This document shows, in pieces, positions 49,295 to 53,320 of a stretch of 64,000 bases of DNA (position 1 is its first letter; each line of letters starts with the position of its first letter). A program made the translations under genes and the position numbers. Source of the DNA: Escherichia phage 92CQ; the sequence record PV682554.1. One strand, given 5' to 3'. The notes under the pieces were generated by a model, which did no database searches, was not told the DNA's origin, and saw nothing but the letters and a program-made list of their open reading frames with translations.

Positions 49295-49630
49295 ATGTGT
49301 GTTCCTCTTAGCAGTCCACTGCTGTTAGAATTTTACAAAGCATGGATGGAAGATCATTCCTCAATGCATCGTGAGAATGTTGGTTTGTGTAATTGCCTTA
49401 TGGATTACCTGGCAACCACTATGTCAAAGAAAAAACCTACGGAAGAAGATATAGAATATTTCAAGATGGTTCGTAGCAAAACGCTGGAAGAGATGAAACT
49501 GCAATTCACGTGTGCTGGGCTATCCTCCTTCCTACCCTTTAATTATGATCTTCTGTGTTATGAAGATGAAGGTAAGACACATTCTTGCCATACCAACCCA
49601 AAGAGATTGCAGTGGGTGAAAGACCTATAA
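49295..49630 (+). CDS. paralogue-family-A protein, copy 1 (111 aa)
   Basis: Track ORF trimmed to ATG after AAAGGAG; shares LL.FY..W...GLC.CL.D...FN.D....RLQWV motif. Confidence 0.55.
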   Translation: MCVPLSSPLLLEFYKAWMEDHSSMHRENVGLCNCLMDYLATTMSKKKPTEEDIEYFKMVRSKTLEEMKLQFTCAGLSSFLPFNYDLLCYEDEGKTHSCHTNPKRLQWVKDL

Positions 49631-49631
49631 A

Positions 49632-49793
49632 GCATGGATTGCCAACTATCCTGCAATGAATCGCACAACGAGTGGCTTATGTGGTTGTCTAGATTATGTA
49701 GATGATTTTGTTGGTGAGACAACTAGAGAAGAAGATAGAAGATGGCGGGATAGTTTGTTGGACCGTTTGAAATATGAAATTCTTCATGGGTGA
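49632..49793 (+). pseudogene. truncated tandem copy of paralogue family A (+1 frame after copy-1 stop)
   Basis: KAWIANYPAMNRTTSGLCGCLDYV aligns with copy 1 KAWMEDHSSMHRENVGLCNCLMDY; homology begins right after TAA; first in-frame ATG at 49656. Confidence 0.35.
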
Positions 49794-49904
49794 AAGACAG
49801 AATTGAAGATGCAAATAATGCTTGCATTGAATAGAAATGTCTGTACACTGTGTTCCATAAGATATGCAATATCGCGCATAACAAACTACTAATGAGAGGT
49901 GTAA

Positions 49905-50363
49905 ATGAAAACTGTATCTTTGTATCTTGCTAACACGGAGCGTGTACATAATCTTGTAAAAGAATGCGGTGTGAGTGTTCAATTTAACATAGGAAAGCCT
50001 TCCGTGGTGACAGGCAGTGAGATGTGTGTTATTGATTTCCTCAATGAATATTTTCGTGGAAAACCTATTGCTCGTCACTTCATTCAAGAAATGCGAGATG
50101 TACTACAGGCTTATGAATTCTACCCAGAAGTTTGTGAACGCTATGAAACGATTCTTAGTGCTGTAGAAGATCCAGATACTAGTGAAACAGGTGCTTCCCA
50201 CTTGCTGTGGATGTTGAATGAAATTCAGGATGGGTGTAATGGTATGTCTGAAACCAAACGCCATCGTTGGCTAGGCTATATTCAGGGTGTTATGGTTATG
50301 AAAAACCTTATTACAGTGAATGATGAACGTAACGCTACACGCCCAGTCTTTAATGGAGCATAA
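49905..50363 (+). CDS. hypothetical protein (152 aa)
   Basis: Track ORF; ATG after GAGAGG. Confidence 0.55.
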   Translation: MKTVSLYLANTERVHNLVKECGVSVQFNIGKPSVVTGSEMCVIDFLNEYFRGKPIARHFIQEMRDVLQAYEFYPEVCERYETILSAVEDPDTSETGASHLLWMLNEIQDGCNGMSETKRHRWLGYIQGVMVMKNLITVNDERNATRPVFNGA

Positions 50364-50364
50364 C

Positions 50365-50580
50365 ATGAAAAGCATTAGGGTGTGTATCGAGAATAATTGT
50401 GGCTATCTGGGGTTGACACACGTTGCTTTCCCTCTTATATTGGATGCCGATATAGCTTACAGCGGAGTTGCTTATGTGTCATTCAAGACAATGAGCCAAG
50501 TACCTGGCTGGAATTGGGAAGTAGTTGATGTTGTTGAAGGAGAAGACTATGTTTTCCTTCCACACGAATATACTGTTTAA
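50365..50580 (+). CDS. hypothetical protein (71 aa)
   Basis: Track ORF 50320-50580 trimmed to ATG after GGAGCATAAC. Confidence 0.5.
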   Translation: MKSIRVCIENNCGYLGLTHVAFPLILDADIAYSGVAYVSFKTMSQVPGWNWEVVDVVEGEDYVFLPHEYTV

Positions 50581-50595
50581 AGAGAGGAAAAGAAG

Positions 50596-50778
50596 ATGGA
50601 TAAACAAACTACTGTGTACTTAGTAACAAAGAATACCCCAGGCTGGAGCCAATGCAGCACTGTTCCTTACAAGATCTGTGCAACATTAGAACTAGCACAA
50701 CGTGCAGAAGCAGAAGTGGATGCCATGCAAATGCAACACAGCTATGGTGAGATCATTCCTTTTACTCTTGAACAATAA
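50596..50778 (+). CDS. hypothetical protein (60 aa)
   Basis: Track ORF; ATG after AGAGAGGAAAAGAAG. Confidence 0.5.
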   Translation: MDKQTTVYLVTKNTPGWSQCSTVPYKICATLELAQRAEAEVDAMQMQHSYGEIIPFTLEQ

Positions 50779-50789
50779 GGAGTTGTGTA

Positions 50790-51242
50790 ATGTTTGAAAT
50801 TGGTAAAGTGTATCGTTTTAAGAACGCATCTTATATCCGTAAGTTTGCTAATGTGTCTGAGTGCAATAGCAGGATTGCTTCTTTCTTAGGTGATTCCTAT
50901 TTTCGTGTATTAGATGTGGATGACTGGTATGGTGTCACTGCTTTGCAATCCTTAGCAGGAGAACAAGAAATTATCGCTCAAAATGAAGGAGACTTTCTTC
51001 AGTGTTACACGTTGCTTGCAAAAAGTGAATTTGAATACTTTGTAGAAGTATTAGAAGAAGCACCAAAAAGTAAACATGAAGAGAAATACTTGCTTGTAGT
51101 GGATGGAGTTCCAATTGTGGAAACCATCTCCCGTGAGGAAGTTGAAAAAGAGGCAAAACGTTACAAGCTGGATCGTACACAGAGTGTAGTTGAAGTCTAT
51201 TCTCTTGTTGGTGTTGCAGATATTAATGTGACCATTGTATAA
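50790..51242 (+). CDS. hypothetical protein (150 aa)
   Basis: Track ORF; ATG after AAGGAG. Confidence 0.55.
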   Translation: MFEIGKVYRFKNASYIRKFANVSECNSRIASFLGDSYFRVLDVDDWYGVTALQSLAGEQEIIAQNEGDFLQCYTLLAKSEFEYFVEVLEEAPKSKHEEKYLLVVDGVPIVETISREEVEKEAKRYKLDRTQSVVEVYSLVGVADINVTIV

Positions 51243-51456: not shown

Positions 51457-51752
51457 CTGTTACAGAAAAACTGCGTTGTATTGCAAAGCAAAGTGGAGAA
51501 GGCTTGTGGTTTCCTATTGATGAAGTTATTCAGGACTGTTATGATCAGGCTAAGACTGGCAAATACTCCAAAGCATTTAAACCATCTGTTTTCGGTTTGG
51601 ATGACTATCCGACAAATGAACAAGCAAGGAAACGCCAAGTTGATTTGATTGATCTTGCTATGGAAGCACTACGAGAGCGTGGACTTAGTAAGGTGTATGC
51701 TTTAAACACCAAAGAGGGTTTTGTAGATTCAGTGATCGTAGACTGGCATTAA
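51453..51752 (+). CDS. hypothetical protein (99 aa)
   Basis: Track ORF; ATGA overlap; AAAGGAGAGG RBS. Confidence 0.55.
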   Translation: MTVTEKLRCIAKQSGEGLWFPIDEVIQDCYDQAKTGKYSKAFKPSVFGLDDYPTNEQARKRQVDLIDLAMEALRERGLSKVYALNTKEGFVDSVIVDWH

Positions 51753-51770
51753 GGAGGATCAGTGTGTAAC

Positions 51771-52112
51771 ATGAAAAGCAGCCCCTATTTGCTACAATTT
51801 TATGAGTGGTGGTTGGAACAAGAAGATACAAACTTTAGCAAAAAGCATTATGGTCTTTGCACGTGTCTTGTAGACTTCTTATACAACATTGCTTGGATAA
51901 AAGATGTTGAAAATGTATCAAAACTCCAATCCTCTGTACGAGAGGAAATGAAGGAACAGTTTAAGAAAGCGGGTTTGAACCATTTACATCCATTTAATAC
52001 AGATTTCTCACATTACTTTACAGAAACAGAGTTAGGCATTGCACACCTTAATAAAGAACGTGTACAATGGGTGATTGATCGTATTCGTGATATGGAGGAA
52101 TACAATGGTTAA
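51771..52112 (+). CDS. paralogue-family-A protein, copy 3 (113 aa)
   Basis: Track ORF 51762-52112 trimmed to ATG; family-A motifs. Confidence 0.55.
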   Translation: MKSSPYLLQFYEWWLEQEDTNFSKKHYGLCTCLVDFLYNIAWIKDVENVSKLQSSVREEMKEQFKKAGLNHLHPFNTDFSHYFTETELGIAHLNKERVQWVIDRIRDMEEYNG

Positions 52113-52323
52113 GTTTAAAACTTTCTGTGCAATCACTGTTTGTCTTATTCTTGCATACGTGTTATTCTCTAGTATCATTCGTTTAGGTGAGTATATGGCA
52201 AGAGAAGCTCGTGAAAGTGAAGCTAAAAAAGAACAGTGCATCGTGTTAAAGCACCAAAGGGATGCTGAAAAATTTCTTGAACAGGATTGCAATCGTTATG
52301 TATCTTATCAAATGTATGAGTAA
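52105..52323 (+). CDS. paralogue-family-B membrane-anchored protein (72 aa)
   Basis: Track ORF trimmed to ATG after GGAGGAATACA; N-terminal TM helix plus C.VLKH...AE.FL...C motif shared with 56188-56412. Confidence 0.5.
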   Translation: MVKFKTFCAITVCLILAYVLFSSIIRLGEYMAREARESEAKKEQCIVLKHQRDAEKFLEQDCNRYVSYQMYE

Positions 52324-52332
52324 GGAGGATTT

Positions 52333-52557
52333 ATGGTAAAACGTCTGGAATGGGATGCGTGTACTGCTCACGCTTGTCACTGTGATATTGTGGAAGATCC
52401 TAATGGAGAAATGGTGTATTATGAGGATTACGAAGCATTGCATAATGCTGTGATCGCTTTACTGGATGATATTAGCTCACGCTATCCAGGACAACAATTT
52501 ACGTGTCCACACATTCAACTGTTAGCTAAACTTACGGAGTATCCAAGTGTTCCATAA
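52333..52557 (+). CDS. hypothetical protein (74 aa)
   Basis: Track ORF; ATG after AAGGAGG. Confidence 0.55.
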   Translation: MVKRLEWDACTAHACHCDIVEDPNGEMVYYEDYEALHNAVIALLDDISSRYPGQQFTCPHIQLLAKLTEYPSVP

Positions 52558-52558
52558 T

Positions 52559-52726
52559 ATGGGTGTCCCTGAACAACTCCTCTTTATTGTAGGACTAGTA
52601 GGCTTATTGGCGGCTGGAGCTAAAGCCGCTTCTCACACGCATCACATAATGTTAAGATTTCTATTCCTACTCCCTTCTATCCTCGTGTTATTAGTCATAC
52701 TGATCGATAACATTTTGCACAATTAA
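52559..52726 (+). CDS. small membrane protein (55 aa), below ORF-track threshold
   Basis: ATG 2 nt after upstream stop; two hydrophobic segments; weak RBS. Confidence 0.35.
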   Translation: MGVPEQLLFIVGLVGLLAAGAKAASHTHHIMLRFLFLLPSILVLLVILIDNILHN

Positions 52727-52735
52727 GGAGAGGTT

Positions 52736-53320
52736 ATGAGTAAAATTATACCAAGCAGTTATGAATTATTGCAGTTTTATGTATATTATATAGACTGGGT
52801 TACTAGATCGAATGTTAAAGACAATGCGATGTTTAGTAAAAACATCTGTTTAACAGAAAGTATCTTCCGTTACTGGCACACAGGCAGAAAGTGTACACAC
52901 AGTGAAGCTATGCGCATTGTAGGTGAATACCTAGAGCAATTGCAAAAAGCAGAACTTCCTGTCCTTCACCCATTCAATGAATCTAAAGAAGAATTAGAAC
53001 AAGAGTGTAGGGAAGGTAAGTGCCATTTGAATGAAAAACGTATTGAATGGGTAAGGCAACGTTTAGCCGATGCAGGAAAGTCTCCTAGTGACTCTGACTA
53101 TACGTGGTACGATGTAGAGGGTTTAGTTCAAGGTTTTGAGGCTTGTGCTATAAATAATACCAACTTTGCCAAAGTTTTATGCGAGGTTTATGACCTAGCA
53201 GATAAAATCCGAAATCAAGGATGGAAACAAGAGCATAAAGAATCATATGAACGCCTTGACAAGATTTTCAAACAGATCTATTCTAACCACAAAGAGATGT
53301 TCCAAATGGAGGATGTGTAA
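52736..53320 (+). CDS. paralogue-family-A protein, copy 4, with C-terminal extension (194 aa)
   Basis: Track ORF; AAGGAGAGG RBS; family-A motifs. Confidence 0.55.
   Translation: MSKIIPSSYELLQFYVYYIDWVTRSNVKDNAMFSKNICLTESIFRYWHTGRKCTHSEAMRIVGEYLEQLQKAELPVLHPFNESKEELEQECREGKCHLNEKRIEWVRQRLADAGKSPSDSDYTWYDVEGLVQGFEACAINNTNFAKVLCEVYDLADKIRNQGWKQEHKESYERLDKIFKQIYSNHKEMFQMEDV

Follow-up and report, generated by a model that had tools for sequence, protein, structure and literature searches.

Decaying pseudogenes in bacterial and phage genomes are reportedly products of a deletional bias, as Mira, Ochman and Moran are said to have described in 2001. A locus of Escherichia phage 92CQ (sequence record PV682554.1), contained in the 64,000-nucleotide (nt) stretch analysed here (the window), shares several features with such pseudogenes. 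It also invites comparison with unequal crossing-over in tandem paralog arrays and with the +1 frameshifting of prfB (RF2). At this locus, c1, a gene for a small protein of the PHROG 2510 family, is followed at once by more family sequence in the +1 frame. We propose, with a probability of roughly 0.8, that the segment 49625-49834 is an ordinary, recent, lineage-specific remnant of a pseudogene, made by deletion within a pair of tandem paralogs and involving no recoding. Like the deletional-bias pseudogenes, the remnant has an intact orthologue in relatives, has lost its start, carries several independent deletions and as yet no substitutions, and shows no conservation of frame. Unlike them, it is flanked by 11-nt direct repeats that come from both paralogs, and one recombination between them would erase the remnant and regenerate a hybrid gene already known in relatives.

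The first-pass annotation, made from the sequence without database searches, placed three paralogs at 49295, 51771 and 52736, and these are real. In the list below, lengths are in amino acids (aa).

49295..49630, + strand: c1, 111 aa; AGGAG 8 nt 5' of the ATG; match to phrog_2510 at E 1.2e-20
51762..52112, + strand: c2, 113 aa with ATG 51771 as start, 116 aa with GTG 51762; match to phrog_2510 at E 2.8e-25
52736..53320, + strand: c3, 194 aa; match to phrog_27059 end to end at E 3e-139, and to phrog_2510 at E 3.5e-17

Pairwise BLASTP comparison gave E values of 1e-23 for c1 and c2 (40% identity), 2e-11 for c2 and c3, and 3e-6 for c1 and c3. The full domain of a custom family hidden Markov model (HMM) was matched by each of them (E 4e-49 for c1, 3e-52 for c2 and 5e-42 for c3), and a six-frame HMM scan of the entire window revealed no copies beyond these three and the remnant. 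The GTG at 51762, which lies behind AAGGAGGA, may be the true start of c2. The motif blocks by which the paralogs had been recognized are exact in c1 and c2 and degenerate in c3, which has NIC for GLC, AEL for AGL, and R.EWV.Q for R.QWV.D. Both c1 and c2 carry all of the family-wide residues L7, F10, Y11, G28-L29-C30, E59, Q63, F64, L69, P74-F75, N94, R97 and W100-V101 (c2 numbering here and below). In c3, a divergent family domain (residues 1-120) precedes a C-terminal extension of about 75 aa, and the invariants of a four-sequence alignment are retained (L, F, Y, one Cys of the GLCxCL block, E, Q, L, P-F-N, H, N, R and W-V). PHROG 2510, phrog_27059 and phrog_6418 are phage protein families whose function is unannotated. 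The intact copies belong to this already known PHROG family and do not differ from it; for JohannJBalmer (Bas62) and many other Stephanstirmvirinae, database entries named 'hypothetical protein' already exist that are identical or nearly so to c1, c2 and c3.

The body of c1 is intact and its C-terminus is truncated. It matches bas62_0143 of JohannJBalmer at 110 of 110 aa, up to D110, where the native tail (…WVKDRIADSC… in EC_OE_11 and outra) has been cut by the first of the deletions listed below and replaced by L-stop. Among 116 family sequences, c1 has the shortest C-terminus, with 3 residues after the invariant WV against a natural minimum of 4, and the conserved R/H after WVxD is missing. 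Loss of the tail may impair c1.

Family sequence in the +1 frame after the c1 stop, also reported in the first-pass annotation, was confirmed. The stretch 49620-49793 translates to KTYKAWIANYPAMNRTTSGLCGCLDYVDDFVGETTREEDRRWRDSLLDRLKYEILHG followed by a stop. It aligns with residues 14-71 of c1 at E 4e-8 (29% identity) and with positions 15-65 of the 118 in the family HMM at E 7e-14. It fails as a complete domain, keeping only Y11 and G-L-C among the family-wide conserved residues, and with HMM positions 15-65 only it is not a functional member of PHROG 2510. When compared with the phAPEC8_0019 protein, 51 of 55 residues were identical (E 7e-37). Because the remnant is this close to phAPEC8_0019 and only 29% identical to c1, while c1 and the intact phAPEC8_0019-type gene (hereafter gene 2) are 46% identical, the remnant is evidently the decayed orthologue of a distinct, old paralog, the separate 122-aa gene 2 (phAPEC8_0019 / outra_171 type), and not a recent duplicate of c1. 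The earlier description of a tandem duplicate that had lost its start was thus right about the tandem member and the lost start; it was wrong about descent from c1, and the lesions number four in total. It also overlooked the last 15 codons of gene 2, which survive at 49787-49834. The lesions were located by base-level alignment with phAPEC8, outra and EC_OE_11, and the features of the segment are as follows (RBS, ribosome-binding site; ORF, open reading frame).

49614..49624, + strand: direct repeat 1, GGGTGAAAGAC, 11 nt, in the WVKD codons of c1
Junction 49623-49625, + strand: lesion 1, a deletion from c1 codon 110 to gene 2 codon 15, of 81 nt relative to outra and 220 nt relative to EC_OE_11
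49625..49780, + strand: body of the gene 2 remnant, codons 15-66, in the +1 frame relative to c1, without start codon or RBS
49656..49793, + strand: 45-aa ORF MNRTTSG…ILHG, a mechanical ORF that is only a fragment of gene 2
Between 49689 and 49690, + strand: lesion 2, a 3-nt deletion that removes one Val
After 49780 (junction 49781..49786), + strand: lesion 3, 111 nt missing, equal to L004:760-870 (MRKQFTCAGL…PFN…CHTNTLR)
After 49785, + strand: lesion 4, 1 nt lost, shifting the frame; lesions 3 and 4 together total 112 nt
49787..49834, + strand: 3' end of gene 2, its last 15 codons WVKDRIEDANNACIE and stop, in the c1 frame with several stops between
49788-49798, + strand: direct repeat 2, GGGTGAAAGAC, within the surviving 3' end, in the WVKD codons of gene 2

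Lesion 1 takes away the tail of c1, the RBS and start of gene 2 and the first 44 nt of gene 2, and joins the two genes out of frame. Lesion 3 eliminates the conserved AGL…PFN…CH.N..R core. An intact orthologue at the same position, lost start signals, and lesions that destroy both frame and domain are thus all found together, as expected of a pseudogene. The body of the remnant (49625-49780) is identical to the phAPEC8 allele at 156 of 156 nt (65/65 over L004:601-665 and 91/91 over L004:669-759), compared with only 91-94% identity to the gene 2 alleles of Justusliebigvirus. The flanks are Justusliebigvirus-like, with 64 of 64 and 74 of 75 nt identical to EC_OE_11. Four indels without a single substitution point to recent decay. 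The strings spanning both deletion junctions, that of lesion 1 and that of the internal deletion, were absent from IMG/VR, and the first of them also from the genomes of GTDB and the metagenomes of JGI; an index of 153 billion genes did not contain the truncated c1 protein in its exact form, and no phage record matched the locus in a single piece. The junctions of the remnant are therefore private to the window genome in the collections searched, and together with the 156 unsubstituted nucleotides this argues that the decay is not only recent but confined to the lineage.

The state from which the remnant decayed is preserved in relatives. The source of the window was shown to be a Justusliebigvirus (phi92-like, Stephanstirmvirinae) E. 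coli myovirus, and the PHROG 2510 proteins belong to its accessory-gene block. The 4.2-kb region matched 121 phage records at 80-99% identity, nearly all of them Stephanstirmvirinae of the genera Justusliebigvirus and Phapecoctavirus, i.e. phi92/phAPEC8-like E. coli myoviruses, and the best matches were EC_OE_11 (97.4%) and JohannJBalmer (Bas62). In EC_OE_11, outra, alia, ESCO32 and phAPEC8, an intact 122-aa gene 2 lies directly 3' of c1, and ZYD also carries gene 2. Its protein reads M(K/T)(S/N)(N/S)IPLSSA.L(I/L)RFYKAWIAN…LQWVKDRIEDANNACIE and then stops. Gene 2 is full length in 80 of the 114 phage records that contain any part of it. Outra and phAPEC8 show ordinary translational coupling, the first 11 nt of gene 2 being shared with the end of the gene before it; alia and ESCO32 likewise have an overlapping, coupled stop and start, and EC_OE_11 carries a hydrophobic ORF of 51 aa (L001:727-882) inserted between c1 and gene 2.

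Other relatives carry single hybrid genes at this position. JohannJBalmer and at least eight others have one in-frame hybrid of the c1 body and the gene 2 tail. The tuntematon hybrid joins another N-terminus to the c1 body and the gene 2 tail, the ZYD hybrid joins the phAPEC8_0018 N-terminus to the gene 2 body, both of them in frame, and ECGD1 has a frameshifted hybrid. The crossover points differ among JohannJBalmer, tuntematon and ZYD. Recombination between the tandem paralogs has thus repeatedly produced single hybrid genes at the locus, and in its chimeric single genes with varied crossover points the set resembles the products of unequal crossing-over in tandem paralog arrays. Compared with these functional chimeras, the copy in the window is a non-productive outcome, out of frame and internally deleted. 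Its arrangement of c1 and remnant in two frames was found in no relative inspected.

These comparisons bear directly on the proposal, made as an alternative in the first-pass annotation, that a second domain is reached by +1 recoding at the c1 stop. A programmed +1 frameshift, or other recoding, would yield a two-domain fusion of c1 and gene 2 through the peptide WVKD-(L/P)-YKAWIANYPAMNR. The restart of family coding in the +1 frame only a few nucleotides from the stop would suit it, as would the natural two- and three-domain fusions of the family known elsewhere. However, the +1 frame holds only codons 15-66, about 40% of the domain (helix 1 to mid-helix 4), and then runs into ILHG and a stop; the conserved C-terminal two-thirds of the domain is deleted. 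The site, GUG-AAA-GAC-CUA-UAA-A, is not slippery: a shift from CUA to UAU allows no +1 re-pairing, and there is no AGGGGG-type element 3 nt upstream. Relatives have intact, separate coupled genes or in-frame hybrids and no sign of recoding, and the junction is unique to the window genome; an intact two-gene state of this kind is what the first-pass annotation itself had said would refute it. The locus resembles prfB only in having homologous coding sequence that goes on in the +1 frame beside a stop; it lacks a slippery codon of the CUU-U type, an upstream Shine-Dalgarno stimulator, conservation, and a complete downstream domain. We consider recoding extremely improbable.

A role for the remnant itself appears just as improbable. 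The 45-aa ORF at 49656-49793 has an ATG and a weak sigma-70-like match (9/12) occurs at 49790-49819, so the fragment could be imagined as a functional micro-protein or as a regulatory element for the downstream gene. But the ATG is preceded by ccaactatcctgcaATG, which holds no purine-rich Shine-Dalgarno sequence, the fragment takes in no more of the fold than part of helices 1-4, and promoter-like matches in the region (28, against 24.4 expected from shuffling) are not above expectation. Moreover, JohannJBalmer and eight others lack the entire segment and are viable. The 45-aa ORF is probably not a gene.

Selection was assessed at the gene level from pairwise Nei-Gojobori (NG86) ratios of nonsynonymous to synonymous substitution (dN/dS), comparing c1, c2 and c3 with six Justusliebigvirus orthologues. 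The ratios were 0.00-0.30 for c1, 0.00-0.06 for c2 and 0.00-0.15 for c3; three neighbouring control genes gave 0.00-0.67. These values indicate that purifying selection acts on the three copies, contrary to the diversifying selection that repeated duplication had been taken to suggest. Among five phages with intact gene 2, nine of ten comparisons gave a ratio of 0.08-0.32 and the tenth gave 0.60, so that gene 2, where intact, is by this measure under purifying selection as well.

On the basis of these findings, the history of the locus can be sketched. Because the two-gene state is present in both genera, the ancestral locus would have held two adjacent, translationally coupled paralogs, c1 and the 122-aa gene 2. 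The lesions themselves are seen in the alignments, and their order is our reconstruction. The first deletion would have run from c1 codon 110 to gene 2 codon 15, taking the tail, the overlap or intergenic signals, the RBS and the start, and leaving an out-of-frame fusion. The 3-nt deletion would then have followed, and an internal deletion of 111+1 nt would have removed the conserved core and shifted the frame. The outcome would be an untranslated fragment, 49625-49834, that the operon transcript simply carries along between c1 and the next gene at 49905. One more recombination between the 11-nt GGGTGAAAGAC repeats would give the in-frame hybrid of the JohannJBalmer type. Decay of this kind fits the general churn of the locus.

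The repeats also allow the reverse order of events. In that case the JohannJBalmer-type hybrid would have come first, and illegitimate recombination with a co-infecting Phapecoctavirus would have brought in a 163-nt patch of phAPEC8-like gene 2 and doubled the 11-nt GGGTGAAAGAC. Against JohannJBalmer the flanks show 99.6% identity, and excision of one repeat with the 163-nt spacer (174 nt) yields exactly the JohannJBalmer protein of 121 aa; the perfect match of the insert to the phAPEC8 allele, against 91-94% for the Justusliebigvirus alleles, would be explained as well. However, the inserted piece must already have carried the 3-nt and 112-nt deletions. The base just past the second repeat is of the phAPEC8 type (AGAATT, not AGAATC), so the phAPEC8-like tract runs beyond the supposed insert. 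In addition, the repeats are simply the homologous WVKD codons of two paralogs, and the two-gene state is common and found in both genera. Such an insertion is unlikely, though clearly less so than recoding.

The lesions might instead be artefacts of sequencing or assembly, gene 2 being intact in the real phage. The 1-nt loss falls in an AA dinucleotide, and the arrangement occurs in no other record. On the other hand, all but one of the four lesions span more than one nucleotide (at least 81, 3 and 111 nt) and their junctions are clean, unlike homopolymer errors, another clean deletion of 629 nt lies nearby in the same genome, and many comparable natural rearrangements are present at the locus in relatives. 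We regard an artefact as very unlikely.

Several points nevertheless weigh against a deletion-made remnant as we describe it. Some translation of the remnant fragments is formally conceivable. The order and mechanism of the deletions are reconstructed. Base 49624 (C) is an orphan at the first junction, since both the c1-type flank and the base before CTATAAAG in gene 2 have T; this orphan, together with the exactly 174 nt, in frame, between the direct repeats, is also compatible with an insertion-type history. The sequence of the phage stock is taken as given. As to the function proposed below for the intact members, it draws on conservation, context and predicted structure, with no domain, structure or literature match for any activity.

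With these points in view, deletion of a tandem paralog remains our preferred reading, and it has direct consequences for annotation: 49625-49834 should be entered as the pseudogene remnant of a phAPEC8_0019-type gene and c1 as C-terminally truncated, with no recoding. The locus offers a natural series, from two genes through two genes with an insert, hybrids with varied crossovers and a frameshifted hybrid to the deletion remnant, which shows how phages shuffle and lose tandem paralogs in their accessory regions, and that they can do without gene 2. The data from the locus indicate no specific new mechanism.

We also examined the family to which these proteins belong. An exhaustive HMM search retrieved 722 cluster representatives at E<=1e-3, of which 143 reached E<=1e-10. 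A tblastn search with the domain of a prophage-type member matched 226 phage records, including phages of Escherichia, Rhizobium, Erwinia, Salmonella, Achromobacter, Pectobacterium and others; a Stephanstirmvirinae genome can hold as many as five copies. The commonest form is a single domain of about 100-125 aa. Natural tandem fusions of two or three domains also occur (P0003, P0008, P0021, P0022, P0028 and P0090), and a family module of about 105 aa is embedded in the long mosaic proteins P0128, P0136, P0147 and P0149. In this embedding the mosaic proteins are like the ead/Ea22-like proteins of lambdoid prophages, and, as we read their sequences, they resemble lambdoid ead/Ea22- and DUF551-type prophage proteins. 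Multi-copy, tandem members occur in large proteobacterial phages; members elsewhere sit as small islands or in arrays of small early ORFs 5' of replication genes.

Searches for a described relative returned no candidate. Scanned with Pfam, NCBIfam and PADLOC, none of the copies and none of 116 family members scored above noise, and Pfam gave no match to ten long multi-domain homologues. No credible match came from sequence searches of the PDB, either with a single protein or with a profile of the 116 sequences. Homologue searches and cluster names returned only unnamed or 'hypothetical' proteins, and nothing on a PHROG 2510-type family was found in the literature on Justusliebigvirus, phAPEC8 and phi92 paralogs. 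The family is thus large, conserved and unstudied, no solved structure being detectably related to it, and functional screens could reasonably be aimed at it.

An AlphaFold2 model of c2 (mean predicted local distance difference test score, pLDDT, 91.4) has six helices, and the PHROG 2510-type domain of about 110 aa is predicted to be all-helical. Its description in the first-pass annotation as a conserved-Cys module was overstated. C30 alone is near-invariant (115 of 116 family sequences), while the other candidate ligands are H92 (89/116), C91 (59/116; Ala in c2) and C32, the second Cys of GLCxC (15/116). A Cys-rich, zinc-finger-like metal-binding module, which requires four conserved Cys/His ligands, was rejected since a single Cys is conserved. 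The conserved hydrophobic positions are taken as the core of the fold, and the conserved polar residues S4, C30, E59, Q63, N76, Y82, E85, H92, N94 and R97 suggest a ligand-binding or catalytic pocket.

From conservation, context and predicted structure, the intact members could be early-expressed accessory proteins of the host-takeover or anti-defence type, an assignment we make with low confidence. Because natural fusions of two and three domains exist, the proteins are proposed to act, probably, as homo-oligomers or as hetero-oligomers of paralogs. A more specific model combines a new all-alpha fold, a conserved Cys/His/Glu/Gln/Asn/Arg pocket, and a paralog oligomer directed, as a small enzyme or a ligand sink, against some function or defence of the host. 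We hold this model to be doubtful, if somewhat less so than patch insertion; if it is true, the gain, fusion, hybridisation and loss of copies at the locus would be the record of an ongoing arms race.

Two arrangements in contigs bear on the distribution of the family. The 86.5-kb contig from GCA_040383985.1 carries, at 5001-7663 of the extracted region (L016), four family copies, three of them nearly tandem, beside four DUF6197 paralogs. Because it is an unrelated large phage-like contig, tandem multi-copy expansion is general to the family and not a peculiarity of Stephanstirmvirinae. In a siphovirus-like metagenomic contig (L017/L018, 5001-6435), a family member stands with Nmad5 (nucleotide-modification-associated) and Phage_VG64 proteins, and this trio makes up a small island on the forward strand, in a structural module that otherwise runs on the reverse strand. 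The grouping with Nmad5 and Phage_VG64 is a possible functional hint from one case.

Small hydrophobic ORFs, with one or two transmembrane (TM)-like segments, adjoin family copies at 52075-52323 and 52547-52726 in the window, at L001:727-882 in EC_OE_11 and at L015:6046-6282 in phAPEC8. The ORF at 52075-52323 overlaps the c2 stop, and its counterpart is conserved beside a family copy (5777-6091) in phAPEC8; the ORF at 52547-52726 stops 10 nt short of c3. In the metagenomic protein P0005, a family domain appears to be joined to a TM segment. A functional pairing of family copy and hydrophobic ORF is possible, judging from this arrangement.

The genes of the 4.2-kb region all lie on the + strand and are named 'hypothetical protein' in each relative inspected. 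Four matching records, MG065639, MG065645, MG065656 and MG065689, are labelled 'Campylobacter phage' (host C. jejuni) yet are about 96% identical to the Justusliebigvirus region, and are probably mislabelled or contaminant genomes. About 3.5 kb downstream of the remnant, a second deletion scar is found at 53321-53356 (junction 53348|53349), where 629 nt have been lost. It leaves a stub of 10 codons and a stop, MKEIMFEGHRH, from a 228-aa 'ead/Ea22-like' gene that follows c3 in EC_OE_11, JohannJBalmer, ESCO32, JLBYU50 and AV123. The flanks of this scar are identical to EC_OE_11 at 99 of 99 and 101 of 102 nt.

Directly 5' of c1, after a terminator-like hairpin at 47541-47559, lies an ORF-free, AT-rich stretch of 1.7 kb (47600-49240; GC 22-36%). 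ARAGORN found 0 tRNA genes in it, and Rfam gave only sub-threshold noise for non-coding RNA. The stretch bears four copies of AATGATAATCATT, at 47773, 47831, 48722 and 48917, and the site 48719-48737, GCAAATGATAATCATTATC, agrees at 17 of 19 positions with the E. coli Fur-box consensus. Fur-box-like matches with <=3 mismatches numbered 4 against 0.08 expected, and core matches 11 against 0.49 expected; a second dense cluster of the motif lies at 37254-37370. Nothing was found in the literature on Fur boxes in phage. The upstream copies could be Fur-regulated or Fur-titrating sites, or iterons of an origin. The cumulative GC skew has a local minimum near 48600-48800, and phAPEC8 has its own equivalent, a gap of about 1.5 kb without genes.

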